Below, in pieces: positions 23,352-39,063 of a DNA stretch of 64,000 nucleotides. The stretch's first letter is position 1, and each line of letters starts with the position of its first letter. A model generated the notes under the pieces. That model worked only from the letters and a program-made list of their open reading frames with translations, searched no databases and was not told where the DNA came from. A program made the position numbers and the translations under genes. Location of the stretch: assembly GCA_040757475.1 (NCBI GenBank), contig JBFLWW010000002.1:23818-87817 (forward strand). Reading direction: 5' to 3'. The DNA is from Nitrospirota bacterium. Lineage in GTDB: Bacteria > Nitrospirota > Thermodesulfovibrionia > Thermodesulfovibrionales > SM23-35.

Positions 23352-25044
23352 AAAAAGGGCAATTATTCTGAATACTGTAATTATTTTCAGTTTCTTTGCG
23401 GTATCTTTGCGTCTGACAGACCTGATGATACTAAACCACAAGCGCCTATCTGAGAGGGCAAGAGCACAACATATAAAGGTTGAAGACATCCAGGTGAGAA
23501 GGGGAACTATATCTGACCGGAGAGAAAGAGAAATGGCGGTAAACCTTGAGCTTGAGTCGCTTTACTGTGACCCTGAAAGCCTTATTATTGATGATGTTGA
23601 TGTAAAGAAACTTTCAATGACTATCGGCAGGAAGGCAGAAGTGATTCTATCTAAGATACCCCCGGAGGGAAGGTTTGCATGGATCGAAAGGAAGCTCGAC
23701 TCTGATGTTGCTGGTAAGGTAAGGAGGCTTGATATCAAGGGTCTGGGTTTTCTGCCAGAGGCAAAAAGATTTTATCCAAAAGGAAAGCTTGCCGCTCATA
23801 TCCTCGGTTTTGTTGGTGTGGACAACCAGGCACTTGAAGGAATCGAACTTGAATATGACGAATATCTAAAGACAACCGGGGGGAAAATATTATTCTCAAG
23901 GGATGCAAGTGGCAAAGTTCTATCATCTGGAGTGGATATAAAGGCAAAAGGGAATAATATCGTGCTTACAATAGATGAAGGGCTTCAGTATCTTGTCGAA
24001 AGCGAACTTGAAAAGGCGATGTTGAAATGGAGGTCTTCTGCAGCATCGGCTATCATGATAGACCCATTTACAGGAGAGATACTGGCCCTTGCCAATATAC
24101 CTGCATACGACCCGAACAGTCCCATGAGGGTAAGCGGTTTTGAAAGGAGAAACAGGGCTATTACTGATTGCTATGAACCAGGTTCTGCATTCAAAATAAT
24201 TGTCGGGACCGCTGCACTTGAGGAGAAGATAGTTGACCTCAACACAAAATTTGATTGTAGCAGAGGAGGCGTTGAGGTTGGTGGTAAAGTAATACACGAT
24301 GCCCACAGACATGGTGTACTTACATTCAAGGAGGTTATTCAGAAATCCTCCAATGTTGGTTCTGTCATGATTGGTATGAAACTCGGGAAGGAAAGGGTTT
24401 ATAAATATGCGAAGCTTTTCGGGTTTGGTGAAAAGACAGAGATAGACTTACCAGGTGAGGTTTCAGGATGGATATATCCGCCAGAAAAATGGTCAGGTAC
24501 CTCTATTGGTGCTATATCAATCGGCCAGGAGGTTGCTGTAACACCACTCCAGATACTCAGGGCATATTCCGCAATTGCGAATGGAGGTTTTCTTGTCAGG
24601 CCACATGTTGTCTCTGAGATAAGGTCACCTGAAGGTCAGGTGCTTGTTTCCTTCAGGGGGTATGAAAAGAAGCGTGCAATTTCCACAGAGACAGCCGAGA
24701 CATTCAAAGATATACTGAAGACTGTTGTTGAAGAAGGCGGGACAGGGTGTAGTGCTTCAGTTGAGGGTAATCAGGTAGCAGGCAAGACAGGGACAGCGCA
24801 GGTTATAGACCCAAAGACAGGGAGATATTCAAAAGAAAAATATGTGAGTTCGTTTGTAGGATTTGTGCCGGCTGACAATCCTAAGATGGCTCTTATTATC
24901 GTCATTTATGAGCCTAAAGGCCAGATTTACGGAGGTGTTGTAGCCGCACCTGTTTTCAAGGAAATAGCGAATCAGGCATTGTCATATCTTAATGTGCCGA
25001 GGGAAGACACCCCTAACAAAAATTTTATGCTGGTATCAAGATGA
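23344..25044 (+). CDS. ftsI: Peptidoglycan D,D-transpeptidase FtsI (PBP3)
   Basis: Contains SxxK (SAFK), SxN (SSN) and KTG (GKTGTA). ATG 23344 overlaps the ftsL stop. Confidence 0.85.
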   Translation: MNKKRAIILNTVIIFSFFAVSLRLTDLMILNHKRLSERARAQHIKVEDIQVRRGTISDRREREMAVNLELESLYCDPESLIIDDVDVKKLSMTIGRKAEVILSKIPPEGRFAWIERKLDSDVAGKVRRLDIKGLGFLPEAKRFYPKGKLAAHILGFVGVDNQALEGIELEYDEYLKTTGGKILFSRDASGKVLSSGVDIKAKGNNIVLTIDEGLQYLVESELEKAMLKWRSSAASAIMIDPFTGEILALANIPAYDPNSPMRVSGFERRNRAITDCYEPGSAFKIIVGTAALEEKIVDLNTKFDCSRGGVEVGGKVIHDAHRHGVLTFKEVIQKSSNVGSVMIGMKLGKERVYKYAKLFGFGEKTEIDLPGEVSGWIYPPEKWSGTSIGAISIGQEVAVTPLQILRAYSAIANGGFLVRPHVVSEIRSPEGQVLVSFRGYEKKRAISTETAETFKDILKTVVEEGGTGCSASVEGNQVAGKTGTAQVIDPKTGRYSKEKYVSSFVGFVPADNPKMALIIVIYEPKGQIYGGVVAAPVFKEIANQALSYLNVPREDTPNKNFMLVSR

Positions 25045-26705
25045 AACTTAGAGAACTTCTTCACGGTTGTGATTATATTGACTCCTCACTTGTCACTTGT
25101 CACTTGTCACTCGATACGGACATCTCAGGTGTAGCTTATGATTCGAGAAAGGTGAAAGAAGGTTACCTGTTTGTGGCGATAAAAGGTGAGAAGCACGATG
25201 GCCATGATTTCATCGGTGATGCAATTAAGCGAGGAGCAGTGGCAATAGTGCATGAAAAAACAGTAACGAGTTACGAGTTACGAGTTACGAGTAAAGAAAA
25301 AGACTTGTCACTTGTCACTCGTCACTTGTCACTTATTCAGGTCAAAAACAGCAGAAAGGCACTTGCCTGTATCGCAAATAATTTTTACGGGAGGCCCTCT
25401 GAGAGGCTCACAGTTATAGGTATAACCGGTACAAACGGGAAGACAACGACAACATATCTCCTTAAATCTATACTCGAATCGTGGGGAAAAGAAATCGGTC
25501 TTATTGGAACAATACAATACATGATAAAGGACAAAAGTTACTCTGCATTATATACAACACCCGAGGCATTAGAGTTCCATGGACTTTTAAGAGATATGCT
25601 CTTATCAGGGTGCACGCATATCATATCAGAGGTCTCATCACACGCCCTTGCTCAGAGCAGAGTGGATGGGACTGTTTTTAAGACTGTAGCGTTTACAAAT
25701 CTCACAAGGGAACATCTGGACTTCCATAAAACTTTGGAGGATTACTTCAGGGCAAAGGAGAGACTGTTTAGAGAGCTTCTCGATAAGGATGGGACCTCTG
25801 TAATAAATCTCGATGACCTATATGGAAAAAGACTGATCTCTTCACTCAGCAGCGGGGTCCCCAGAAAGTCGCAAGACTTTCTGGGGCGTATATTAACATA
25901 CGGCCTTGAGACAGGAGCAGACATTATGGCGAGGGATATCAATAGTTCATTCAAAGGGTTGAGGTTCAAAATAGCATTCCGTGGCAGGAATTATAATATC
26001 TCATCTGCTCTGATGGGTCTACCAAATGTATACAATATTATGTCTGCAGCTGGGGCATCAATCTCGATAGGAGTTCCATGGGATATAATTCTTGAGGGTA
26101 TAAAAAATTTAGGCACTGTTACAGGCAGATTCGAAAAGGTTAATCTTGATCAGAATTTTCTGTGTATCGTTGATTATGCCCATACAGAGGATGCCCTCGA
26201 GAGGCTGATATATACAGCGAGGGAACTTATAAATAAGCCTTTAGTCAATAGTCATCAGTCATTAGTGAAAGACAGTAACAAGTTACGAGTTACGAGTAAC
26301 AAGTATGAAGATAAGAACTTGTCACTTGTTACTTGTCACTCGTCACCCCGTATTATTACTGTCTTTGGGTGTGGAGGAGATAGAGATCGCAGTAAGAGAC
26401 CGGGGATGGGTACAGTAGCAACAAGGCTTAGCGATTTTGTGATTATCACCTCTGACAATCCGAGGTCTGAAGACCCGAACAAAATAATTAGAGAGATTGA
26501 AGCAGGAGCTATAAGGAGAAACTATATAATCGAACCTGACAGAGCAGAGGCAATCAAAAGAGCTATTATGCTGGCAGGCGAGGGAGATATTGTCCTTGTT
26601 GCAGGCAAGGGACATGAGGATTATCAGGAAATTAAAGGTGTAAGGTATAGATTTAATGACAGGGAAATATTAGAAAAGGCGATCAAACAAAGAATAAAGT
26701 CGTAA
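25041..26705 (+). CDS. murE: UDP-MurNAc-tripeptide synthetase MurE, carrying three in-frame repeat insertions
   Basis: Contains DSRKV, GITGTNGKTTT, DYAHTEDAL and GCGGDRD. The ORF is 554 aa versus roughly 490-500 aa typical. Confidence 0.9.
   Translation: MKLRELLHGCDYIDSSLVTCHLSLDTDISGVAYDSRKVKEGYLFVAIKGEKHDGHDFIGDAIKRGAVAIVHEKTVTSYELRVTSKEKDLSLVTRHLSLIQVKNSRKALACIANNFYGRPSERLTVIGITGTNGKTTTTYLLKSILESWGKEIGLIGTIQYMIKDKSYSALYTTPEALEFHGLLRDMLLSGCTHIISEVSSHALAQSRVDGTVFKTVAFTNLTREHLDFHKTLEDYFRAKERLFRELLDKDGTSVINLDDLYGKRLISSLSSGVPRKSQDFLGRILTYGLETGADIMARDINSSFKGLRFKIAFRGRNYNISSALMGLPNVYNIMSAAGASISIGVPWDIILEGIKNLGTVTGRFEKVNLDQNFLCIVDYAHTEDALERLIYTARELINKPLVNSHQSLVKDSNKLRVTSNKYEDKNLSLVTCHSSPRIITVFGCGGDRDRSKRPGMGTVATRLSDFVIITSDNPRSEDPNKIIREIEAGAIRRNYIIEPDRAEAIKRAIMLAGEGDIVLVAGKGHEDYQEIKGVRYRFNDREILEKAIKQRIKS
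25080..25114 (+). repeat. Heptamer array (GACTCCT, 3x CACTTGT, CACTCGA) in the murE N-terminus
   Basis: Read directly from the sequence. It translates DSSLVTCHLSLD. Confidence 0.9.
25262..25338 (+). repeat. Composite inverted heptamer element (5x AGTTACG-type, spacer unit, 5x CTTGTCA-type) in murE
   Basis: 11 units on one lattice. It translates VTSYELRVTSKEKDLSLVTRHLSL. Confidence 0.9.
26241..26345 (+). repeat. Composite element of 15 heptamers = 35 codons in murE
   Basis: 4x TAGTCA-type, 5x AGT[TA]AC[AG]-type, a spacer, then 4x CTTGT[CT]A-type units. It translates LVNSHQSLVKDSNKLRVTSNKYEDKNLSLVTCHSS. Confidence 0.9.
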
Positions 26706-26714
26706 TATCTATTA

Positions 26715-27512
26715 TTGGACATAGTGATGGTTATAGAATTAGAAGGGCTAAAGGTCTTCTATGATTTTGCTGGTGAAGGATATACCGTTATCTTGATGCA
26801 TGGGTGGGGAGGAGAAGCAGCAAGTTTCAAGCCAGTTTTTGACTATCTGTCAAAAAGCTATAAGGTATACGCTTTCGATTTTCCAGGATTCGGTAAGAGT
26901 GAACTTCCTATAGAGCCATGGGGAACTGAAAACTATGGGAAATTTGTTACAAAATTCTTTAATGCAATGAATATAAAAAAGGCAAATATAATAGCCCATT
27001 CTTTTGGAGGAAGGGTAGCTATATGGCTGGCTGCGAATTTTCCAGAGACGGTGAATAAACTGGTACTTGTTGACAGTGCTGGTATTAAGCCAAAGAGGAC
27101 ATTAAAGTACCATATTAAAGTGGCAGTTGCAAAGGCTAGCAAGAGAATTTTATCCCGCTCTATCTTTGGCAAATATGGTGAACGCTTACTTAATGGTTTA
27201 TATCGTTTAATTGGCTCTAAAGATTATCAACAGCAAATTGGTATTATGAGGGCTACTCTTGTTAAGGTTGTCAATGAAGACCTAAGATGGCTCTTGTCAA
27301 AGATTATAGCACCTACATTACTTATATGGGGAGAAGATGATAAAGATGTGCCCTTATCTTATGCAAGGATAATGGAAAAAGAGATAAGGGATGCTGGTCT
27401 GGTTGTTCTTAAAGGTGCAGGCCATTTTTCATACCTGGATAGATTTTCAGATTTCTGTTTAATTGTTTCAAAATTTTTTGGTGATATAAAAGGTGTTAAG
27501 AATTATGGCTGA
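26715..27512 (+). CDS. Alpha/beta-fold hydrolase inserted in the dcw cluster
   Basis: Contains HGWGG, the nucleophile elbow AHSFGG, an acid residue in GEDDKDVP and a His in GAGHFS. The start is uncertain (TTG 26715 or ATG 26727). Confidence 0.75.
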   Translation: MDIVMVIELEGLKVFYDFAGEGYTVILMHGWGGEAASFKPVFDYLSKSYKVYAFDFPGFGKSELPIEPWGTENYGKFVTKFFNAMNIKKANIIAHSFGGRVAIWLAANFPETVNKLVLVDSAGIKPKRTLKYHIKVAVAKASKRILSRSIFGKYGERLLNGLYRLIGSKDYQQQIGIMRATLVKVVNEDLRWLLSKIIAPTLLIWGEDDKDVPLSYARIMEKEIRDAGLVVLKGAGHFSYLDRFSDFCLIVSKFFGDIKGVKNYG

Positions 27513-28992
27513 TATTCTATTACCTATAATCGGTGTCATTACTATTGGAGCACTGCTGTTAATTACCATTTTAAGGCTTATTATGTTTCTACACATGCTT
27601 CAACTTGAAGGATATAGGAGTAAAAGATTTATAAAGTGGCTTATCAATAATCCTAATAAAATGTTGGCAGTTAGGACTATTAAAGAACCTAAAAAAAAGT
27701 TAGTTTTCACTGCAAGGGCTACAAGGCTTTTTATCTTGATGCTGATGTTGTTAAGCTCTGTGATATACAATCTCTCAAGGCTTTCTCTAATTATCTTTAT
27801 ATCAGGGATATTCTTAACTAGTTTCTTTGCTCCGTTTTTACTTATATTGTCTAATATCCTGATTTATCCCTTGGAGACAGTAATCAACAATCTATATCTT
27901 AGATCAGCAAAGAAAAAGATCAAAAAGCTGAAGCCTAAGGTAATTGCAATTACGGGGAGTTATGGGAAAACAAGCACAAAAGACTTTCTGGCACATATTC
28001 TCTCAACAAAATATAAGGTTTTGAAAGTCCCGGGGAGTTTCAACACCCCGATGGGTATTTGCAAGATAATAAGGGGTGAGTTAAGACCAGAGCATGAGAT
28101 ATTTATTGTTGAAATGGGAGCGAGAGAGAAGGGTGATATAAAAGAGTTGTGCGAACTACTTAAACCAGAGGTCGGTACAATTACGGCCATAGGTCCACAG
28201 CATCTCGAAATGTTTAAAACCATCGAGAACATAATAGATACAAAGTATGAACTAGTAGAATCATTGCCTGCTAATGGGATAGCAGTATTTAATAATGACG
28301 ATGAAAATTGCAGGCACCTCGCTAATAGGACATATGATAAAAAGGTTCTACGTTATGGAATTAATAAAAATAACAAGAAACTACATCTTATGGCAATGGA
28401 TATTTCTACGAGTAATCAGGGAATTTATTTCTTAGCACAGAATAGTAGGGGAGACGCCGTGCCTTTTCATTGCAAACTTCTGGGTAAGCATAGTGTTTAT
28501 AATATATTAGCAGCAGCTACAGTTGCTTTAGAATTTGGAATGTCCCTCAATGAAATTGCAGAAGCTATAAAGATATTAGAACCTACACCTCATAGGTTAC
28601 AGTTGATTCGCGGGGCAGGAGGGGTAACTGTAATAGATGATGCCTTTAATGCAAATCCAGTAGGTGCAAAGATGGCATTGGAAGTGCTGGGTGAGTTTAA
28701 AGGTGGAAGAAAGGTCTTAGTGACCCCAGGGCTTGTAGAGCTTGGTGAGAGGGAGTATGAGGAGAATAAACAGATAGGAATTACAGCAGCTAAGATATGT
28801 GATTTTGTATTTTTGATTGGGCCTAAGAGGACAAAGCCTATTTTTGAGGGCTTGAAAGAAGCTGGGTTCCCCGAGACAAATATATTTGTCGAAAAAAGTC
28901 TAAATGCTGTAACTGGGAAATTTAAGAGTATATTAAAGGCTGGCGATGTCGTCTTGTTTGAGAACGACCTGCCGGATACATACAATGAGTAA
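27493..28992 (+). CDS. murF: MurF-like Mur ligase with an N-terminal multi-TM extension replacing the usual N-domain
   Basis: About 140 N-terminal residues form hydrophobic helices plus an LQLEGY motif. These are followed by ITGSYGKTSTKD (P-loop), EMGAR and DDAFNANP. Confidence 0.7.
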   Translation: MLRIMADILLPIIGVITIGALLLITILRLIMFLHMLQLEGYRSKRFIKWLINNPNKMLAVRTIKEPKKKLVFTARATRLFILMLMLLSSVIYNLSRLSLIIFISGIFLTSFFAPFLLILSNILIYPLETVINNLYLRSAKKKIKKLKPKVIAITGSYGKTSTKDFLAHILSTKYKVLKVPGSFNTPMGICKIIRGELRPEHEIFIVEMGAREKGDIKELCELLKPEVGTITAIGPQHLEMFKTIENIIDTKYELVESLPANGIAVFNNDDENCRHLANRTYDKKVLRYGINKNNKKLHLMAMDISTSNQGIYFLAQNSRGDAVPFHCKLLGKHSVYNILAAATVALEFGMSLNEIAEAIKILEPTPHRLQLIRGAGGVTVIDDAFNANPVGAKMALEVLGEFKGGRKVLVTPGLVELGEREYEENKQIGITAAKICDFVFLIGPKRTKPIFEGLKEAGFPETNIFVEKSLNAVTGKFKSILKAGDVVLFENDLPDTYNE

Positions 28993-30181
28993 ATTAAAAA
29001 TAGGCGTTATATTTGGTTCCCGTTCCGTTGAACATGAGGTTTCAATCATTACTGCTCATCAGGTTATGCAGGCTATTGATAAGGATAAGTATGAAATTGT
29101 GCCAATTTACATTACAAAAGGGGGATATTGGGTTACTGGCAAAAAACTATTTAATCTTGAAAACTTTAAAGATTTGCCATCATTAATTTCTGATTTAAAG
29201 AAAGTTTATATTGCACCTGACCCCTCTGTTAAATCATTGGTCATGACATCTAAAAGGTGGTTTAAAGGGGCGTCGTTAAAAATAGATGTAGCCTTTCCCC
29301 TCGTTCATGGGACATGTGGTGAAGATGGCACATTACAGGGGCTTCTGGAGTTAGCCAACATACCTTATGTTGGTGCAGGTGTCCTTGGCTCGGCTCTTGG
29401 AATGGATAAAATTGCTATGAAAGCAGTTTTTAAAGAAAACCATTTGCCTGTAGCGAACTATGTCTGGTTTTTAAGGAATGAATGGGAAGATAAGCAAGAA
29501 AAAATAATTGCTAAAATAGAGACAAATCTTAAATACCCTCTTTTTGTAAAACCTGCAAATCTGGGTTCAAGCATAGGCATTTCAAAGGCTAAAAACAGAG
29601 AAGATTTGATGTACTCCGTGGAAGTTGCCAGCCATTATGACAGACGTTTGATAGTAGAGGAGTCGTTAGAGGATGCTATAGAAATAAATTGTTCTGTACT
29701 TGGCAACGAAGACCTAATTCCATCGGTGTGCGAACAACCTGTTTCATGGGAAGAATTCTTAAATTATGATGAAAAATATTTGAGGGGCGGTAAGACCTCA
29801 GGTTTGAAAGGTGCGGATCGCCGAATACCTGCTCCAATTTCTCAAGAGCTTACAGAAAAGATTCAGAAATTAGCTATTGATACATTCAGGGCTGTTGATT
29901 GTCGTGGTATTGCCAGAGTAGATTTTCTTGTTAATACAGAGAAGAGCAAGATATTTATAAACGAAATAAACACCATACCCGGTTCTATCTCTTTTTATTT
30001 ATGGGAGGCTACTGGCATCAAATTCTCAGAACTGGTTGATAGGCTTGTTGATTTAGCTATAGATGCATATAAAGAAAAAAGTAAGACAACTTATTCCTAT
30101 GATTCAAAATTACTGAAACACATTAGTAGCCCTTCCCCAAAGTTAGGTATTAGGGGTATGAAAAAGGTTCTGGAGGCGTAA
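28985..30181 (+). CDS. ddl: D-alanine--D-alanine ligase (long form, 398 aa)
   Basis: Starts MSKLKIGVIFGSRSVEHEVS. Contains HGTCGEDGTLQGLLE, an ATP-grasp fold and NEINTIPG. The ATG overlaps the murF stop. Confidence 0.85.
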   Translation: MSKLKIGVIFGSRSVEHEVSIITAHQVMQAIDKDKYEIVPIYITKGGYWVTGKKLFNLENFKDLPSLISDLKKVYIAPDPSVKSLVMTSKRWFKGASLKIDVAFPLVHGTCGEDGTLQGLLELANIPYVGAGVLGSALGMDKIAMKAVFKENHLPVANYVWFLRNEWEDKQEKIIAKIETNLKYPLFVKPANLGSSIGISKAKNREDLMYSVEVASHYDRRLIVEESLEDAIEINCSVLGNEDLIPSVCEQPVSWEEFLNYDEKYLRGGKTSGLKGADRRIPAPISQELTEKIQKLAIDTFRAVDCRGIARVDFLVNTEKSKIFINEINTIPGSISFYLWEATGIKFSELVDRLVDLAIDAYKEKSKTTYSYDSKLLKHISSPSPKLGIRGMKKVLEA

Positions 30182-30182
30182 C

Positions 30183-31265
30183 ATGCTATATAGCCTTCTT
30201 TACAGCATGCATGACTTGTTTTCACCCCTGAATGTGTTCAGGTATATCACATTCAGAACGTCGCTCGCTGTGTTTACAGCGCTGATGCTTGCATTGATAT
30301 TAGGTCCATCAATTATAGGCAGGCTCAAACAGTTAAATGTAACACAGCAGATAAGAGACGATGGTCCACAGATACATATGGGCAAAGCAGGCACTCCTAC
30401 AATGGGGGGGATCCTGATTATAATCTCTATCCTTCTATCTATCTTGCTATGGGGTGACCTGAGGAATATGTATATATGGGTTATGATTATTTCCCTCGCA
30501 GGGTTTGGTGGTATTGGTCTACTTGATGACTATTTGAAGATTGTAAAGAAAAACTCGAAAGGTCTGCGTGCATGTTATAAGTTTGGTGCACAGATAGCAC
30601 TTGCACTTTTAATTGGTATCTTTCTTTACATGAACCCTAAGGACCCTTACAGCGATGTTCTCAGCGTACCATTCTTCAAAAAATGGCTTTTTGATCTTGG
30701 GTGGTTTTATATACCGTTCTCGATTATTGTGATTGTGGGCTCATCAAATGCAGTTAATCTGACAGATGGTATTGATGGCCTTGCCATAGGGCTTGTGGGT
30801 ATAGCGGTCATGGCAAATGGGGTACTGGTTTATATATCAGGGCATAAGGGGCTTGCCCAGTACCTGCAGGTTCTCTATCTGCCAGGCACTGGAGAGCTTA
30901 CAGTTTTCTGTGGCGCTATGTTAGGTGCTTCTTTAGGTTTTCTCTGGTATAACTCATATCCTGCAGAGGTATTCATGGGAGATGTTGGTTCACTTGGACT
31001 TGGTGGTTCGCTCGGTGCGCTTGCAGTAATTACAAAGCACGAGATTGTTCTTGCAGTTGTAGGTGGGATATTTGTAATAGAGACCCTTTCTGTTGTCTTT
31101 CAGGTGGCATCATTCAGGCTGACCGGCAAGAGGATATTCAAAATGGCACCTATCCACCACCACTTTGAGTTAAAGGGATGGCCAGAATCAAAAGTTATTG
31201 TAAGGTTCTGGATAGTTGGAATTATACTGGCTCTGTTGAGCTTAGCAACATTAAAGGTGAGGTGA
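30183..31265 (+). CDS. mraY: Phospho-N-acetylmuramoyl-pentapeptide transferase MraY
   Basis: Contains GTPTMGG, NAVNLTDGIDGLA and HHHFE. Confidence 0.9.
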   Translation: MLYSLLYSMHDLFSPLNVFRYITFRTSLAVFTALMLALILGPSIIGRLKQLNVTQQIRDDGPQIHMGKAGTPTMGGILIIISILLSILLWGDLRNMYIWVMIISLAGFGGIGLLDDYLKIVKKNSKGLRACYKFGAQIALALLIGIFLYMNPKDPYSDVLSVPFFKKWLFDLGWFYIPFSIIVIVGSSNAVNLTDGIDGLAIGLVGIAVMANGVLVYISGHKGLAQYLQVLYLPGTGELTVFCGAMLGASLGFLWYNSYPAEVFMGDVGSLGLGGSLGALAVITKHEIVLAVVGGIFVIETLSVVFQVASFRLTGKRIFKMAPIHHHFELKGWPESKVIVRFWIVGIILALLSLATLKVR

Positions 31266-31267
31266 TT

Positions 31268-32281
31268 ATGAGAAAGTCATTAGTCATTAGTCATCAGTCA
31301 TCAGTCATAATAAGGAAAAGATTATTATTTATTGTAGTCTTTTTACTTCTCACTTCTCACTTTTCACTTTCAACTTTGTTTGCTGATGAGATCCATTCCC
31401 GTGCCGCCCTTGTTATGGATGCGTCAACAGGAAAGGTGCTTTATGCAAAAAATCTAAACCTTAAGCTTCCTCCTGCGAGTACAGCAAAGCTGATGACTGC
31501 TATTGTGGCAATTGAAAAGGCAGACCTCAATGATGTTATTACGATAAGCAAAAGAGCAGTCAGTGTTGCTCCAACAAAGGCTGGATTTAAGGCAGGAGAA
31601 AAGGTGACAATTGAGACGCTTCTTTATGCAGCGCTTCTCAGGTCTGCAAATGATGCTGCTACAGCCCTTGCAGAAGCTGTAGCTGGTTCAGAAGCTAAGT
31701 TTGTCCAGCTTATGAATAGAAAGGCGATTGCTATTGGAGCAAAGGATACAAAATTCATAAACCCACATGGACTTCCTGGCCCTGACCAGTATATTACAGC
31801 CCATGACCTTTCAAAGATAATGAGACATGCGCTCAAATATCCCAGACTAAAAGAGATCATCGGGACTCGTGTTGCAGAGGTCTCAATAAAAAGGGGGAAG
31901 TCCATATCTCTTGAAAACACAAACAGACTTTTGTGGGTTGACGAATACCTTGTGGGTGGTAAGACAGGATATACCCGTAAAGCAAGGCATTGTTTTGCAT
32001 GTGCCTGTAAACGCAAAAAGAATACAGTTGTAGTTGCCCTCCTCGGCAGTCCAAGCAGGGAAAACCTATGGAAAGAAGCAGAATTACTGATTGATAAGGG
32101 ATTCCAGATAATGGCAAATAAAGAAGAACCTGTCATCTATTTTACAAAGGCAGATTATGATGCACTTAATGTGAAGAAGGCATCCTATAAGAAAAGTTCA
32201 AAGTTCAAAAGTTCAAAGTTAAAGGCTTCATCACTTAAGTATAGGGTTGCAAAGAAAGGTGAGGATGGGAATAAAGGATAA
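31268..32281 (+). CDS. dacA: D-alanyl-D-alanine carboxypeptidase (S11, PBP5/6-like) with repeat-encoded signal peptide and tail
   Basis: Contains SxxK (ASTAK), SxN (SAND) and KTG (GKTGYT). ATG 31268 follows AAGGTGAGGTGA. Confidence 0.8.
   Translation: MRKSLVISHQSSVIIRKRLLFIVVFLLLTSHFSLSTLFADEIHSRAALVMDASTGKVLYAKNLNLKLPPASTAKLMTAIVAIEKADLNDVITISKRAVSVAPTKAGFKAGEKVTIETLLYAALLRSANDAATALAEAVAGSEAKFVQLMNRKAIAIGAKDTKFINPHGLPGPDQYITAHDLSKIMRHALKYPRLKEIIGTRVAEVSIKRGKSISLENTNRLLWVDEYLVGGKTGYTRKARHCFACACKRKKNTVVVALLGSPSRENLWKEAELLIDKGFQIMANKEEPVIYFTKADYDALNVKKASYKKSSKFKSSKLKASSLKYRVAKKGEDGNKG
31274..31308 (+). repeat. Heptamer array (3x AGTCATT, 2x AGTCATC register) at the dacA N-terminus
   Basis: aagtcat tagtcat tagtcat cagtcat cagtcat, which translates KSLVISHQSSVI. 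Confidence 0.9.
31340..31374 (+). repeat. Heptamer array (TTCTCAC/TTTTCAC) forming the dacA signal-peptide h-region
   Basis: tttttac ttctcac ttctcac ttttcac tttcaac, which translates FLLLTSHFSLST. Confidence 0.9.
32193..32221 (+). repeat. AAAGTTC array in the dacA C-terminal tail
   Basis: aaagttc aaagttc aaaagttc aaagtta, which translates SSKFKSSKLK. Confidence 0.85.
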
Positions 32282-33674
32282 AAAAGTAACCGTAGTAGGC
32301 CTTGCCAGGAGCGGCGTAGGCGCAGCAAACCTTTTATCAGAACTCGGAGCTGATGTAACAGTAACAGACAAAAAAACAGAATATGAATTAAAGGATTTTG
32401 TAAAAAAGCTTAATCCTTCTATAAAACGTGCATTAGGAGGACACCCGGAAGATATATTCACATCAGCTGATATGATAGTCGTCAGCCCTGGTGTTCAGCT
32501 TGACACTCCACCCATTACTAATGCAAAAGCAAAAGACATCCTAATAATTGGCGAGCTTGAACTTGCATATCAGATAATAAGTTCAAAGTTCAAAATTCAA
32601 AGTTCAAAGTTTCCAAAATTTTTAGCAGTAACAGGTACAAATGGGAAGTCTACTACTACAACATTACTCGATCTTATGCTAAAGAAATGTGGGTTCGAGA
32701 CCCTTTTAGGAGGGAATATAGGGAATGCCCTGACCTCGTCACTTCTCACTTCTCACTTCTCACCTGATTACATTGTTGCTGAGGTATCGAGCTTTCAGCT
32801 TGAGTCAATAAAGGATTTCAGGCCAAAGGGTGCTGCTATCCTTAACATTACTCCTGATCACCTTGACCGATACTACTCACTCGAAGAATACAGAGATGCA
32901 AAGGCAAAGATATTTGAAAACCAGCAGGAGGACGATTTTCTGGTAATTAATGCAGATGACCCTGAAACAATGAAAGTTCAAAGTTCAAAGTTCAAAGTTC
33001 AAAGTGAAAAACCAAAAGTCTTTTACTTTAGCCGTAAGAAAGAGGTCAAGGGTATTTATTTCAAAGATGGACGAATCTATTGTAATTTCCCTGACTCCTC
33101 ACTCCTCACTCCTCACTTCCCACTTATAAAGGCTGATGAGATAAAGATAAAGGGTGTCCATAACCTGGAGAATGCCATGGCTGCTTCGGCCATGGCTCTC
33201 CTTGCAGACTGCCCCCTAAAGGCAGTGATAGATTCCTTGAGAGAATTTCCTGGTCTTGAGCACAGGCTTGAATTTGTCAGGGAGATAAATGGCATCCGAT
33301 ACATCAATGATTCAAAAGGGACTAATGTAGGTGCAGTCATCAAGTCACTTGAAAGCTTTACGAAGCCGATTGTTTTAATCGCGGGTGGAAGAGATAAGGC
33401 AGGAGATTTTTCGTTATTGGGACATTTAGTGAGAGAAAGGGTGAAGGCAATTATATTAATTGGTGAGGCAAGTGAAAAGATAAAAAAAGCCCTCGGTGAC
33501 CTTACAGAGACAGTGATGGCAAAAGACTTAAGAGATGCTGTAATAATATCACATAACAAGGCAGTGAATGGCGATGTAGTCCTGCTTTCGCCGGCATGTG
33601 CAAGTTTTGACATGTTTATGGACTTCGAGGACAGAGGAAGACAGTTTAAAGATATTGTATGGAGTTTGAAATGA
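32265..33674 (+). CDS. murD: UDP-MurNAc-L-Ala--D-Glu ligase MurD with four in-frame repeat arrays
   Basis: Contains VVGLARSG, VTGTNGKSTT, EVSSFQLE and DSKGTN. The start is probably ATG 32265, overlapping the dacA end. Confidence 0.9.
   Translation: MGIKDKKVTVVGLARSGVGAANLLSELGADVTVTDKKTEYELKDFVKKLNPSIKRALGGHPEDIFTSADMIVVSPGVQLDTPPITNAKAKDILIIGELELAYQIISSKFKIQSSKFPKFLAVTGTNGKSTTTTLLDLMLKKCGFETLLGGNIGNALTSSLLTSHFSPDYIVAEVSSFQLESIKDFRPKGAAILNITPDHLDRYYSLEEYRDAKAKIFENQQEDDFLVINADDPETMKVQSSKFKVQSEKPKVFYFSRKKEVKGIYFKDGRIYCNFPDSSLLTPHFPLIKADEIKIKGVHNLENAMAASAMALLADCPLKAVIDSLREFPGLEHRLEFVREINGIRYINDSKGTNVGAVIKSLESFTKPIVLIAGGRDKAGDFSLLGHLVRERVKAIILIGEASEKIKKALGDLTETVMAKDLRDAVIISHNKAVNGDVVLLSPACASFDMFMDFEDRGRQFKDIVWSLK
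32581..32611 (+). repeat. GTTCAAA array in murD (before the P-loop)
   Basis: gttcaaa gttcaaa attcaaa gttcaaa, which translates SSKFKIQSSKF. Confidence 0.9.
32739..32766 (+). repeat. TCACTTC array in murD (after GNIGNAL)
   Basis: 3x tcacttc plus tcacctg, which translates SLLTSHFSP. Confidence 0.9.
32973..33007 (+). repeat. AAAGTTC array in murD
   Basis: 4x aaagttc plus aaagtga, which translates KVQSSKFKVQSE. Confidence 0.9.
33093..33125 (+). repeat. CACTCCT array in murD
   Basis: gactcct cactcct cactcct cacttcc cactt, which translates DSSLLTPHFPL. Confidence 0.9.
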
Positions 33675-34864
33675 AATATGATAAGTGGATGCTTTTTGTC
33701 ACAATTCTCCTTATAGGTTTTGGTGCACTTATGATATACAGCTCCACATCTGTTATCACACCTGTGCTTGCAAAGAAAAATGTCACAGAATTTTATTATT
33801 TCAAAAGGCATATGTTTACGATGCTTATCGGTTTTGGGATTATGTTTTTTGCCTACAGGCTAAAACTTTCTACAATTAAGAAGATGGCCGTGCCCCTCCT
33901 GATTTTTTCTTTTGTATTACTAATATTAGTTTTTGTGCCTGGCATAGGTGTCTCTGCCAATAATGCAAGGAGGTGGATAAGACTCTGGCCCTCTACATTC
34001 CAGCCATCAGAGCTTGTTAAGCTCTCCATGGTCATATTTCTTGCAAAGTATATGTCAATGTTAGAGTATAGAACAGACAGCCTTGTCTCTTTTATAAAAC
34101 CTGTTCTTGTAATGGCGGTATTTCAGGTGGTTTTTCTCAAACAGCCTGATTTTGGGTCTGTGATAAGCCTTATGCTTCTGACATTTATAATGTTATTTCT
34201 TTCAGGCATAAGGCTCAGATATCTTGCATATCTGTCAGTGCTTGCCCTGCCTATAATATACAAACTTATCATGGAGCCTTACCGCCTCAAAAGGGTTATG
34301 GCATTTCTCGATCCGTGGAAAGACCCTCAGGGAAGCGGATTCCAGCTTGTACAATCTTTTATAGCCCTCGGCAGCGGAGGGCTAACAGGCGTTGGACTTG
34401 GAAAGTCCAGACAGAAATTAGCCTTCCTACCCGAATCCCATACGGATTTCATATTCTCTCTAATCGGGGAGGAACTCGGCTTTATAGGTGTGCTGGTCGT
34501 TATAACGCTTTTCTTGTTCTTGTTTATCAAGGGGATATCCATTGCAAACAGGTCAAGGGACAAGTTTGTCTATTATCTTGCATTCGGACTTTCACTGATG
34601 ATCTCTTTGCAGGCGCTAATTAATTTTGCAGTTGCAACAGGCATGGTACCAACAAAAGGTTTGCCACTGCCGTTTATTAGCTATGGGGGTTCATCTCTCT
34701 TTGTGAATATGGCTGCTATAGGGATACTGCTTAATATATCGAAGGGAGAGGAGAACAGAAAGATTGCAGATATAGACCCAAAAATGATTGTGAGGAGGAA
34801 GGCCCGATTAAAAATTCAAAATGCAAAATTCAAAAATCAAAATTACGGAATTCCTTTATTTTGA
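33659..34864 (+). CDS. ftsW: Peptidoglycan glycosyltransferase FtsW (SEDS) with repeat-encoded C-terminal tail
   Basis: SEDS motifs are present (RWIRLWPSTFQPSE, LPESHTDFIF, PLPFISYGGSS). Confidence 0.9.
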   Translation: MEFEMKYDKWMLFVTILLIGFGALMIYSSTSVITPVLAKKNVTEFYYFKRHMFTMLIGFGIMFFAYRLKLSTIKKMAVPLLIFSFVLLILVFVPGIGVSANNARRWIRLWPSTFQPSELVKLSMVIFLAKYMSMLEYRTDSLVSFIKPVLVMAVFQVVFLKQPDFGSVISLMLLTFIMLFLSGIRLRYLAYLSVLALPIIYKLIMEPYRLKRVMAFLDPWKDPQGSGFQLVQSFIALGSGGLTGVGLGKSRQKLAFLPESHTDFIFSLIGEELGFIGVLVVITLFLFLFIKGISIANRSRDKFVYYLAFGLSLMISLQALINFAVATGMVPTKGLPLPFISYGGSSLFVNMAAIGILLNISKGEENRKIADIDPKMIVRRKARLKIQNAKFKNQNYGIPLF

Positions 34865-34894: not shown

Positions 34895-36025
34895 ATGAGG
34901 GTAATAATAGCAGGAGGAGGTACAGGTGGACATCTTTTCCCAGGCTTGGCAATAGCTGAGGAGTTTAAGAGAAGGGATGAAAAAACAGAGGTTATATTTG
35001 TCGGGACAGAGCACGGTATAGAGGCGAAGGTAATCCCGAGAGAAGGATACCCGATAAGACTTTTAAGGGCAGAGGGCATCGTGGGCGTATCTGTAATCAA
35101 AAAGGTAAGGGCGGCCGTCAAGATGTTCCTTTCTGTGATTGATTCCTACAGGATCCTCAGGGCAGTGAAGCCTGCTATAGTTATAGGGGTCGGAGGATAT
35201 GCATCAGGGGTATTTGTATTTACTGCATATCTCATGTCAATACCAACAATGATACACGAGCAAAATTCTGTTCCCGGCCTTGCAAATAGAATCCTCGGAA
35301 AATTCGTGAGGGCAATATGCACAACATATCAGGAGAGTCTCTCATTCTTTCCAAGGGCCAGGAGTTTTCTTACAGGAAACCCTGTAAGGATGCAAATACT
35401 AAAGGGCAGCAGGGATTCTGCATACAGACTCTTCTACCTCGACAGTGATCTATTTACAGTATTTATCTTCGGAGGGAGTTTGGGTGCATCGAGTATAAAC
35501 AGGGCTATGGTAGATGCCCTCAATTATCTATATGACCTGAGAGACAAGATCCAATTTCTCCACCAGACAGGAGAAAAAGATTACGAAAATATTCGTGAGG
35601 TATACCGAAGGCTGGGGTTTAAAGGGATGGTCGCTTCGTTTATATATCAGATGGCTGAGGCATATGCAGTTGCAGATATAGTTATTTCAAGGGCGGGTGC
35701 AACAGCCCTGTCAGAACTGACTGCTATCGGAAAGCCTGCAATATTAATCCCTTATCCATATGCAGCAGGACAACATCAGGAATTGAATGCAGGTAAGCTC
35801 GTTGAGATGGGTGCAGCTAAGATGATACTTGACAGTGAGCTTAGAGGCGAATCTCTTGCCAGTTATATAAGAGAATTGTATATGAATAAGGCACTGAGAG
35901 AGGAGATGCAGAAACAGAGCCGCTCGCTTGGAAGGCCTGAGGCATGCAGTAAGGTGGTTGATATAGCAATGAGCTTCATAAGACAGTCAATAGTCAGTAG
36001 TCATCAGCCAAAAGGAGAGGGATAG
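34895..36025 (+). CDS. murG: UDP-GlcNAc--lipid I transferase MurG
   Basis: Contains GGTGGHLFPGLA and QHQELNA. Confidence 0.9.
   Translation: MRVIIAGGGTGGHLFPGLAIAEEFKRRDEKTEVIFVGTEHGIEAKVIPREGYPIRLLRAEGIVGVSVIKKVRAAVKMFLSVIDSYRILRAVKPAIVIGVGGYASGVFVFTAYLMSIPTMIHEQNSVPGLANRILGKFVRAICTTYQESLSFFPRARSFLTGNPVRMQILKGSRDSAYRLFYLDSDLFTVFIFGGSLGASSINRAMVDALNYLYDLRDKIQFLHQTGEKDYENIREVYRRLGFKGMVASFIYQMAEAYAVADIVISRAGATALSELTAIGKPAILIPYPYAAGQHQELNAGKLVEMGAAKMILDSELRGESLASYIRELYMNKALREEMQKQSRSLGRPEACSKVVDIAMSFIRQSIVSSHQPKGEG
35984..36011 (+). repeat. AGTCA-type heptamer array forming the murG C-terminal tail
   Basis: cagtcaa tagtcag tagtcat cagccaa, which translates QSIVSSHQP. Confidence 0.8.
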
Positions 36026-37437: not shown

Positions 37438-37461
37438 AAGTGAAAAGTGAAAAGTTAAAAG
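37434..37461 (+). repeat. TGAAAAG array (reverse orientation of TCACTTT) at the murC/murB junction
   Basis: ttaaaag tgaaaag tgaaaag ttaaaag. It contains the murB GTG start and translates VKSEKLKE. Confidence 0.85.
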
Positions 37462-38366
37462 AAATATTTTCTAAGTGCTCCTTTGAAGGCGAGGTTAAAA
37501 TTATGGAGCTGATGAAGAATCATACCTCGTTAAGGATTGGAGGCCCTGCTGATGTCTTTACTATACCTCAGAACATGGCATCAATCAGGGATGTGATAGG
37601 CATTTTAAAAGAAAGGCATATACCATTTTCCCCTCTCGGCGGAGGAACAAATATCCTGGTGAAAGATGGAGGCATAGAAGGGGTTGTTATATCATTCAGG
37701 TCTTTTAAACGGATTGAGGCTATAAGAGAAGAGGACAAGTATGTGGATTTATCTGTCGAGGCAGGAACACCACTTCAGGGGCTTGTGAACTTTTCAAAAT
37801 GGAATGGTTATTCAGGGATTGAAGGCCTTGCAGGTATACCTGGCTCTGTTGGTGGAGCAGTATGTGGGAATGCAGGTTCTTTCGGATATGAGATAAAAGA
37901 TGTGCTTGTATCTGTTGCAATAATGGATGCTGAAGGGAAACTTAATATACGTAGGGTAGAGGACCTCGGATTCGGGTACAGGAAGTCTAATATTTCCCAG
38001 AATGAGATGATTATGAGTGCAAACATCAGGCTGCGAAAGGGTAAGAAGGAGGAGGTGTTGGCTACGATAGAAGATTTCTTGAAAGAGAGGCGTAAGAGGC
38101 AGCCAATTTTAGAACCATCTGCTGGATGTGTATTTAAAAACCCTGACGGTTTATCTGCAGGTAGGTTGATAGATGAAGCAGGCTGCAAAGGTATGAGGAT
38201 TGGTGATGTTGAGGTGAGCAACCTTCATGCAAATTTTTTCATAAATAAAGGGAAGGCAAAGGCATCAGATTTCATTAGGCTGATGGAGGAGGTTGCTTAC
38301 AGGGTCAAGGAGAAATTTGGGATTGTGCTTGAGCATGAGATAAGGATAATAGGAAGAGATGCGTAG
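37440..38366 (+). CDS. murB: UDP-N-acetylenolpyruvoylglucosamine reductase MurB
   Basis: Contains HTSLRIGGPADVF, GGGTNILV and SAGCVFKNP. Confidence 0.9.
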   Translation: MKSEKLKEIFSKCSFEGEVKIMELMKNHTSLRIGGPADVFTIPQNMASIRDVIGILKERHIPFSPLGGGTNILVKDGGIEGVVISFRSFKRIEAIREEDKYVDLSVEAGTPLQGLVNFSKWNGYSGIEGLAGIPGSVGGAVCGNAGSFGYEIKDVLVSVAIMDAEGKLNIRRVEDLGFGYRKSNISQNEMIMSANIRLRKGKKEEVLATIEDFLKERRKRQPILEPSAGCVFKNPDGLSAGRLIDEAGCKGMRIGDVEVSNLHANFFINKGKAKASDFIRLMEEVAYRVKEKFGIVLEHEIRIIGRDA

Positions 38367-39063
38367 GGTCGTTATTTTTCTAATTATCTCTGCACTTGTA
38401 ATAAGCGTATCTGTTTATATTTCAGGCACAATAAAATCAGTATTCCCAATTAAACATTTTATATTTAGTGGGAACAAACATCTAACAGATGATGAACTCA
38501 AGATACTCGCGGGTCTTTACGGAGGTGAAGGACTGATTACGATTTCAAGCAAAGAGGTAAGTCAAAGGTTGCTCAAATCCCCATGGATAAGATCTGTGAG
38601 CCTGAGAAAAGAATTTCCTGAGACACTATCAGTAGTGATAGAGGAGGCGGTGCCACTTGCGCTTCTTGACATGAATGGCCATCTCTTCCTGATAGACGAC
38701 AATGGCAAACTTCTTGAAGAGCTTAAGGATGGGTCTGTGCCTTTTATCCCGATAATTACAGGGAATCCGTTTAAAGAAAGGGAGGCTTTTTCTGAGGCAC
38801 TCAATCTTGTAAACGTGATGAAGTCTAAAGGGCTTTCATCAGGGAAAGACCACATTGAGGTAATTGCACAGAGGCCGCAGGAACTCGCAGTAAACATTGA
38901 TGGAATTATTGTGAAGATAGGAACTGGTGGATATCAGGAAAAACTTGAAAGGCTGATTGAGCTGGAGGATGAGATAAAGAGGAGGAATATCGCTGTTGAT
39001 TACATAGATCTAAGATTTACAAACAAGGTGATATTGAAACCGATAAAAGAGGTTGTTAAGTGA
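38359..39063 (+). CDS. ftsQ: Cell division protein FtsQ (TM + POTRA)
   Basis: N-terminal TM, then the POTRA-like block IKHFIFSGNKHLTDDEL, in the expected dcw position. Confidence 0.75.
   Translation: MRRVVIFLIISALVISVSVYISGTIKSVFPIKHFIFSGNKHLTDDELKILAGLYGGEGLITISSKEVSQRLLKSPWIRSVSLRKEFPETLSVVIEEAVPLALLDMNGHLFLIDDNGKLLEELKDGSVPFIPIITGNPFKEREAFSEALNLVNVMKSKGLSSGKDHIEVIAQRPQELAVNIDGIIVKIGTGGYQEKLERLIELEDEIKRRNIAVDYIDLRFTNKVILKPIKEVVK

Follow-up and report, generated by a model that had tools for sequence, protein, structure and literature searches.

A membrane-anchored MurF cassette in place of canonical murF and ddl in a Nitrospirota bacterium, with evidence for horizontal displacement

Which enzyme completes the cytoplasmic peptidoglycan precursor in a bacterium whose division and cell wall (dcw) cluster has no ordinary murF between murE and mraY, and where did this enzyme come from? 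The question was raised by a stretch of 64,000 nucleotides (nt) from a Nitrospirota bacterium of the order Thermodesulfovibrionales (GenBank assembly GCA_040757475.1, contig JBFLWW010000002.1, positions 23,818 to 87,817), hereafter referred to as the window. At positions 26715-30181 of the window three co-oriented open reading frames (ORFs), encoding a hydrolase, a Mur ligase and a D-alanine--D-alanine ligase (Ddl), separate murE from mraY. An earlier sequence-only reading had proposed that these three genes stand in for murF, and the analysis confirmed the observation. The account that we consider probable is that the trio was acquired horizontally, displaced both murF and ddl, and works as an ordinary D-Ala-D-Ala pathway.

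Three coupled genes separate murE from mraY

The dcw cluster is complete on the forward strand of the 64-kb window. Its upstream part runs mraW, ftsL, a penicillin-binding protein (PBP) gene and murE, after which the three extra genes are found, and these are followed by mraY, an S11 D-Ala-D-Ala carboxypeptidase gene, murD, ftsW, murG, murC, murB, ftsQ, ftsA and ftsZ. The interval and its flanks contain the following features, in window positions.

25041..26705, forward strand: murE, the upstream flank (NF001126, 557 bits)
26715..27512, forward strand: EstV-like serine alpha/beta hydrolase (Pfam Abhydrolase_1; ORF from TTG 26715)
27493..28992, forward strand: membrane-anchored MurF (Mur_ligase_M and Mur_ligase_C; ORF from GTG 27493)
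27505..27939, forward strand: N-terminal membrane module of this MurF, residues 1-145 of the 495-residue form (from hydropathy, charge and alignment)
28985..30181, forward strand: long DdlA-like D-alanine--D-alanine ligase of 398 amino acids (aa) (ORF from ATG 28985; NCBIfam)
30183..31265, forward strand: mraY, the downstream flank (Pfam Glycos_transf_4 and MraY_sig1)

The three genes form a translationally coupled cassette. The hydrolase and ligase genes share 8 nt (ATGGCTGA, 27505-27512), an overlap that runs from the murF ATG to the hydrolase stop codon (27510-27512), and the ligase and ddl genes likewise overlap by 8 nt (ATGAGTAA), as the sequence-only reading had described for the 398-aa Ddl. 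The gap between murE and the hydrolase ORF is 9 nt long and the mraY ATG lies 1 base past the ddl stop, and no extra ORFs were present at these two outer junctions.

The ligase belongs to the MurF lineage and lacks domain 1

The start of the ligase favoured by its homologues is ATG 27505, which gives a protein of 495 aa; this numbering is used below. Pfam detected Mur_ligase_M (PF08245, E = 3.1e-46) and Mur_ligase_C (PF02875, E = 8.5e-15) in the protein, and the same scan gave no match to the Mur_ligase N-domain (PF01225). The NCBIfam scores were 256 bits for MurF versus 106 for MurD and 83 for MurE. The alignment to the MurF model TIGR01143 began only at model position 64, and because domain 1 is absent the score of 256.1 bits remained below the cut-off of 288.6. 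MurF chains in the PDB matched the ligase at E = 1e-33 to 6e-40 from query residue ~124-150 onward. When the whole protein was modelled with AlphaFold2 (AF2; pLDDT 84), the model could be superposed on MurF crystal structures with TM-scores of 0.6-0.67 over about 365 columns, and the ten best structural matches were all MurF. The P-loop GSYGKTSTK was invariant among the aligned homologues, and the C-terminus carried a conserved LFENDLPDxYxE motif.

In sequence and fold the M and C domains resemble those of canonical MurF (E. coli 1GG4, P. aeruginosa 4CVK-4CVM, A. baumannii 4QF5, T. maritima 3ZL8), and the P-loop and the place between murE and mraY are also shared with the canonical enzyme. Unlike in canonical MurF, domain 1 (~80 residues, which binds the UDP moiety) is absent and a three-helix membrane module of ~145 residues stands in its place, with invariant motifs of its own; the conserved C-terminal motif is a further difference. 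The ligase clearly belongs to the MurF lineage, with domain 1 replaced by a membrane module, and it is predicted to add D-Ala-D-Ala to the UDP-MurNAc-tripeptide. Since no other MurF-like ORF was found in this genome, which is 96% complete, the membrane form is its sole MurF.

The sequence-only reading had already noticed that the N-terminal domain was swapped for transmembrane helices with an LQLEGY motif. We found three hydrophobic helices by hydropathy, at residues ~4-26, ~72-90 and ~93-118. The loop of residues 27-70 contains 10 Lys/Arg versus 2 Asp/Glu, and this basic loop should be cytoplasmic; a basic juxtamembrane helix joins the third predicted transmembrane helix to the P-loop region. 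In an alignment of 15 homologues 23 columns of the N-domain were invariant. They include LH.LQL.GY..R...W and KK.LV.TARA.R in its loop (motifs LHxLQLEGY..R..W and KKxLVxTARAxR) and P.E...N..Y...A ahead of the ligase domain. These invariant positions indicate a conserved module that is more than a simple anchor. The structure prediction that the sequence-only reading had called for gave a helical model of the N-domain alone (AF2, pLDDT 85), and a fold search of the PDB returned no match at E <= 0.001.

An N-domain profile matched 1466 cluster representatives (clusters of 50% identity) at E <= 1e-3, and the membrane-anchored form of MurF is therefore common. In the Atlas structure search a single match to the N-domain exceeded TM 0.5 (TM 0.59 over 107 residues); this cluster carries Mur_ligase_M, and its commonest phylum is Campylobacterota, as judged from the only 2 members for which the phylum is known. 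Atlas feature matches for the membrane-MurF module had scores of 0.87 and 0.96. A search of short proteins with the N-domain retrieved fragments only, mostly from Poribacteria. The protein P0226 was rejected as a comparison protein for the N-domain, its ORF being chimeric or mis-assembled.

Canonical murF and the short ddl are missing from the sites that they hold in relatives

To survey the displacement, 30 family and order relatives were searched with the membrane MurF and the loci were read in nine of them. Full-length membrane MurF was present in two relatives, namely a genome of the same genus (96% identity) and one from another genus of the family (84%). In the remaining 28 the match was limited to residues ~145-490 at 25-38% identity, the copies of canonical MurF being 31-38% identical. 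In same-family and same-order relatives a canonical murF of 445-480 aa occupies the very site that is held by the cassette in the window: among the nine loci that were read, seven encode canonical MurF, and murF adjoins mraY in all seven, with murE alongside in six. The flanks of these nine loci are 57-66% (MurE) and 78-85% (MraY) identical to those of the window, and the corresponding values for same-family relatives are 69-76% and 83-84%. Judging by these identities, the flanking murE and mraY are vertically inherited.

The loss extends to a second gene. In the relatives the order is murC-murB-ddl-ftsQ, with a short ddl of 307-314 aa, whereas in the window murB abuts ftsQ and the short ddl is missing from the following site.

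38359..38366, forward strand: overlap of murB (37440-38366) and ftsQ (38359-39063), the site of the short ddl in relatives

A second Ddl was not found anywhere in the 96%-complete genome either, so that the 398-aa Ddl is the sole copy; the search for another canonical murF or ddl, suggested in the sequence-only reading, was thus negative for both genes. Among 301 sampled genomes of the phylum only two, this one and the genome G283, encode the N-domain, and the membrane form is not the norm in Nitrospirota. G283 represents another family of the same order; its cassette sits at the corresponding place in dcw, and canonical MurF is missing from this genome too. Sequence comparison gives good support to an in-situ displacement of the ancestral canonical murF by the cassette and to a horizontal replacement of murF and ddl.

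The cassette proteins are closest to those of anammox bacteria

About 80 loci share the gene order hydrolase-murF-ddl, and they are spread over Nitrospirota, Brocadiia, Poribacteria, Bacillota and Gammaproteobacteria. About 65 of these loci belong to Poribacteria, in which the cassette lies inside dcw, and in Scalindua-type Brocadiia it lies outside dcw. Further loci come from Caldanaerobacter, Tissierellia, an Acutalibacteraceae metagenome-assembled genome (MAG) and a gammaproteobacterial MAG, and the ligase is also present in Endothiovibrio. Scalindua rubra, Caldanaerobacter subterraneus, the one Poribacteria genome that was searched and G283 have no MurF/Ddl other than the trio, and the membrane form is the only MurF in G001 and G014 as well. 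No membrane-form MurF was detected among 72,556 plasmids.

With Scalindua-type anammox bacteria the cassette proteins of the window share 72-75% identity. For the flanks, compared with Scalindua rubra, identity drops to 45% (MraY) and 43% (MurE); the identity between the cassettes of the window and G283 is 59-62%. A clade consisting of the window subclade, G283 and the Scalindua group was recovered in all three protein trees (supports 99/97, 99 and 97), and the three cassette gene trees agree with each other. The phylogenies are incongruent with the flanking dcw genes and with the species lineage, in line with the horizontal replacement proposed in the sequence-only reading. The canonical MurF and short Ddl of the relatives stand on very long branches in the trees. 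For the ligase, an approximately unbiased (AU) test rejected a single Nitrospirota clade (p = 0.0066), the group having been chosen after inspection of the tree. We conclude from these sequence comparisons that the cassette moved between the Scalindua lineage and the Thermodesulfovibrionales subclade, and only infer the direction of this movement.

Several loci outside the window show further arrangements of the same genes. In Scalindua-type loci a fragment of 50 aa from a Ddl N-terminus is located just upstream of the cassette (L020:5787-5939), and at the same position L029 and L030 carry a second short ddl-like ORF of 32% identity (e.g. L030:3326-4336). Both the fragment and the ddl-like ORF may be what is left of a ddl that was displaced, and this would bear on the direction of the transfer. 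In Scalindua rubra (G031, C29:13814-18225) murE and mraY lie ~2.4 kb apart, and the cassette is found ~12 kb further on the same contig. A Tissierellia MAG (G034) encodes both a canonical ddl-murF pair (C70:17054-19086; MurF 422 bits, above the cut-off) and a membrane-MurF cassette (C196:18082-20231), and it is possible that this genome represents an intermediate state that precedes displacement.

The cassette is AT-rich relative to its present host

The G+C content of the block is 37.2%, compared with 41.3% for the genome, 41.6% for murE and 43.0% for mraY, and only 2.1% of the genome's 3.47-kb windows have a G+C this low. Taken singly, all three genes have a G+C close to the 5th percentile, and their G+C at third codon positions (GC3) ranges from the 3rd to the 16th percentile. 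The hand counts of the sequence-only reading (33-35% versus 42-43%) had therefore caught the direction of the deviation and overstated its size, the real dip being about half as deep. The deviation is one of G+C and GC3, and it does not extend to codon-usage distance. In the members of the subclade (the window genome, G001, G014-like MAGs and L023) the cassette has 35-40% G+C and its flanks have 43-47%. In Scalindua-type genomes the G+C of the cassette equals the local 34-38%, and in G283 it is host-like. Composition favours a putative AT-rich, Scalindua-like donor.

The absence of heptamer arrays from the block, which had been proposed as a second sign of recent arrival, was real but did not hold up as evidence. 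Tandem Repeats Finder detected no period-7 arrays between 26347 and 31274. However, 30% of random placements of a 3467-bp segment in the window were also free of arrays, and stretches of 4-7 kb without an array are frequent; repeat absence therefore carries no weight, and we rejected it as an indication of recent arrival. The arrays themselves are heptanucleotide tandem repeats (3.6-5.5 copies, often paired ~10 nt apart) that sit in coding genes as in-frame insertions, at the following window positions.

25086-25334 and 26241-26346: murE
31275-31377 and 32193-32224: DD-carboxypeptidase gene
32579-33117: murD
34807-34844: ftsW
35985-36003: murG

In MurE the arrays occupy three loop positions, at which close relatives have different insertions and more distant ones have none. 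The length of this MurE (554 aa) is due to these insertions.

Ddl and the expected peptidoglycan terminus

The sequence-only reading had taken the membrane-tethered ligase and the hydrolase as a hint of a modified last cytoplasmic step of precursor synthesis. The properties of the Ddl speak against such a modification. The protein passes the cut-offs of NF002528 (372.8 bits, cut-off 262) and TIGR01205 (315.5 bits, cut-off 245.65) and is below those of all Van-type models, including VanG (272, cut-off 495) and the D-Ala-D-Lac ligase model (233, cut-off 550). The omega-loop Lys-Tyr pair (K215/Y216 in E. coli DdlB) marks specificity for D-Ala-D-Ala over D-Ala-D-Lac. This pair was retained in all cassette Ddls, nearly always as D(E/D)KY, and the relatives' short Ddls have it too. 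The best match in the PDB was the Ddl of S. aureus (258 bits). At the same time, both a PBP transpeptidase and the S11 D-Ala-D-Ala carboxypeptidase are encoded in the same dcw cluster and point to an ordinary D-Ala-D-Ala terminus. The carboxypeptidase gene has the following position.

31178-32281: S11 D-Ala-D-Ala carboxypeptidase, in the mraY/murD interval of dcw

The same arrangement of a DD-carboxypeptidase gene inside dcw was seen in G283 and in most of the same-family and same-order loci that were read. With these features, and with the trio being the sole MurF/Ddl of several genomes, an altered precursor chemistry is not supported by the sequence data.

The hydrolase accompanying the membrane MurF

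The first gene of the cassette encodes an alpha/beta hydrolase (Pfam Abhydrolase_1, E = 2.2e-30), in which the motifs HGWGG and AHSFGG that had been pointed out in the sequence-only reading are present; homologues favour ATG 26727 over TTG 26715 as its start. The best NCBIfam model was that of the EstV family lipase (NF058580), with 132.7 bits, which is below the 300-bit equivalog cut-off. The same model was the top one for all 13 cassette hydrolases tested, and each of them stayed under the cut-off. The HG oxyanion motif (H29-G30-W31-G32) and the residues Ser96, Asp209 and His237 were invariant in 13 homologues from six lineages. Since the Ser-Asp-His triad is intact and the gene is almost always located immediately upstream of murF, we infer that the hydrolase is probably an obligate companion of the membrane MurF. 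A prediction of the complex of MurF and hydrolase returned a score of 0.00 without a verdict and was uninformative on binding either way.

A protein of 282 aa (P0297, from a Logan contig of 2396 bp) combines alpha/beta hydrolase Pfam domains with a match to the MurF N-domain profile (66% identity to the N-domain, 65% of the query covered). It is either a fusion of the hydrolase and the N-domain or a frameshifted gene call.

Comparison with known systems

Membrane-associated forms of MurF have been noted before. MurF of H. pylori has been described as having four N-terminal transmembrane domains (Blair et al. 2018, as cited in PMC9448923), and in C. jejuni the genes ddl (Cj0798c) and murF (Cj0795c) flank one for an alpha/beta hydrolase, Cj0796c, which is possibly essential (PMC5530802). 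EstV of H. pylori is a characterised short-chain carboxylesterase (Ruiz et al. 2007, as cited in PMC3741291). Our literature search for membrane-bound or atypical MurF yielded nothing beyond the H. pylori remark, and transmembrane forms are unmentioned in a paper on MurE-MurF architecture. The H. pylori ddlA-estV-murF cluster is presumably HP0738-HP0740, with EstV as HP0739.

As in the Helicobacter/Campylobacter cluster, the MurF studied here has N-terminal transmembrane helices (three in this case) and is adjacent to an EstV-like hydrolase and a ddl. The two differ in gene order, which is hydrolase-murF-ddl here and ddl-hydrolase-murF there, and in context, the present module being embedded in a complete dcw cluster. 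In addition, the Ddl is nearer to the S. aureus/DdlA type than to the H. pylori Ddl (2pvp), which it matched with only 113 bits, and the hydrolase remains short of the EstV family cut-off. This MurF is likely a member of the Helicobacter-type membrane MurF family, and the locus is an evolutionary case of a known but poorly studied cassette, not a new system.

Another group of comparable enzymes comprises MurT of the MurT/GatD lipid II amidotransferase and the membrane-anchored PgsB/CapB, which have a Mur-ligase central domain without the UDP-binding N-domain and act at or on the membrane. Like MurT, the present ligase has no domain 1, and MurT was among its distant matches (NF052464, E = 2.3e-8; structure 7q8e). 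In contrast to MurT, it scores far better with MurF models and is partnered by a Ddl, and the cassette contains no GatD-like partner.

Discussion

In the course of events that we favour, the cassette would have arrived horizontally in a small subclade of Thermodesulfovibrionales, made up of this genus and a few neighbouring lineages, and would have displaced the canonical murF that had stood between murE and mraY; loss of the ancestral short ddl from the murB/ftsQ site would have followed. Its closest relatives outside the subclade are those of Scalindua-type anammox Planctomycetota, and the low G+C would fit such genomes and not the present host. In the cell, Ddl would make D-Ala-D-Ala, and the membrane-anchored MurF, working close to MraY on the inner side of the membrane, would join this dipeptide to the MurNAc-tripeptide precursor. 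The three findings by which the sequence-only reading would have judged horizontal replacement to be wrong were an unremarkable composition, cassette genes branching with their dcw neighbours and a membrane-anchored MurF throughout the phylum; what we found was the opposite for branching and distribution, and for composition a deviation in G+C and GC3.

Several observations weigh against parts of this account. The ligase is under the TIGR01143 cut-off without domain 1, and binding of the UDP moiety is consequently only putative. The codon-usage distance of the cassette is unremarkable and no outlier, the group for the AU test was selected with the tree in view, and neither mobile-element genes nor boundary repeats marking an insertion were found at the cassette. 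Moreover, the Ddl and hydrolase trees nest the Scalindua group among Nitrospirota sequences, and in G283 the cassette occupies the same site with a G+C like that of its host. On the basis of this nesting and of G283, it is possible that the cassette originated within the order and was then exported to Scalindua.

The same G283 locus, together with the ordinary codon-usage distance, could also be explained if the membrane form were ancestral and vertically inherited in this lineage, its low G+C reflecting only amino-acid composition or expression level, and if the relatives had acquired their canonical murF and ddl later. This seems very improbable to us, since the N-domain occurs in only 2 of 301 genomes of the phylum and the canonical form in 28 of the 30 near relatives, and the nine loci that were read have flanks 57-85% identical to those of the window. 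Vertical inheritance would also have to account for GC3 being low and not just overall G+C, for the rejection of Nitrospirota monophyly in the AU test and for the 72-75% identity of the cassette to Scalindua against 43-45% for the flanks; on distribution, identity contrast and AU test we rejected it. We regard as equally improbable an accessory or resistance pathway in which the precursor has an altered terminus (D-Ala-D-Lac, D-Ala-D-Ser or another dipeptide) and the hydrolase removes the normal one, as in van clusters. There is a superficial likeness to van operons, which combine a ligase with a hydrolase and in some clusters also with a murF, and the Ddl does match Van-type models at E = 1e-50 to 1e-81. 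However, these scores are far under the respective cut-offs, whereas the Ddl models are passed and the omega-loop Lys-Tyr is kept. The block contains no dehydrogenase, racemase, VanX/Y or VanRS genes, and its hydrolase is a serine alpha/beta hydrolase instead of a VanX/Y metallopeptidase. We rejected Van-type resistance on the NCBIfam cut-offs, on the Lys-Tyr pair and because this genome and several others have no MurF/Ddl besides the cassette.

A third alternative concerns the substrate and is somewhat less remote, although we still find it unlikely. According to it, the membrane MurF would act after MraY on the MurNAc-tripeptide linked to undecaprenyl pyrophosphate (lipid I or II carrying a tripeptide), and the hydrolase would be a catalytic partner that processes or proofreads this lipid-linked intermediate. 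The complete replacement of the UDP-binding domain 1, the conserved basic motifs at the predicted cytoplasmic face of the membrane, an N-domain without a solved analogue and the strict linkage of the hydrolase to the ligase would all suit such a role, and MurT, which also has no domain 1, is established to act on lipid II. On the other hand, by sequence as well as by fold the M and C domains are nearest to true MurF, and a membrane anchor alone would explain the channelling of the product to MraY. The reading would also require MraY to use the tripeptide precursor efficiently. If it were true, Campylobacterota, Poribacteria, anammox bacteria and many others would depart from the textbook order, with MraY acting before MurF.

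Horizontal acquisition of a trio serving the ordinary D-Ala-D-Ala pathway would mean that murF and ddl, both essential for the cell wall, gave way together to a foreign, functionally linked cassette exactly at the ancestral locus. The similarity across phyla, between Nitrospirota and anammox Planctomycetota, combined with the compositional scar, would make this a clean case for the swapping of essential steps. The membrane form of MurF is widespread; several phyla have it as their only MurF, and according to the literature it is also the form of H. pylori. The functions of its N-domain and of the accompanying hydrolase have been little studied. As MurF and Ddl are antibiotic targets, the substrate of this form and its dependence on the hydrolase are of practical interest. 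What the locus chiefly adds is a well-documented example of two essential genes being displaced in situ, with a link between phyla.

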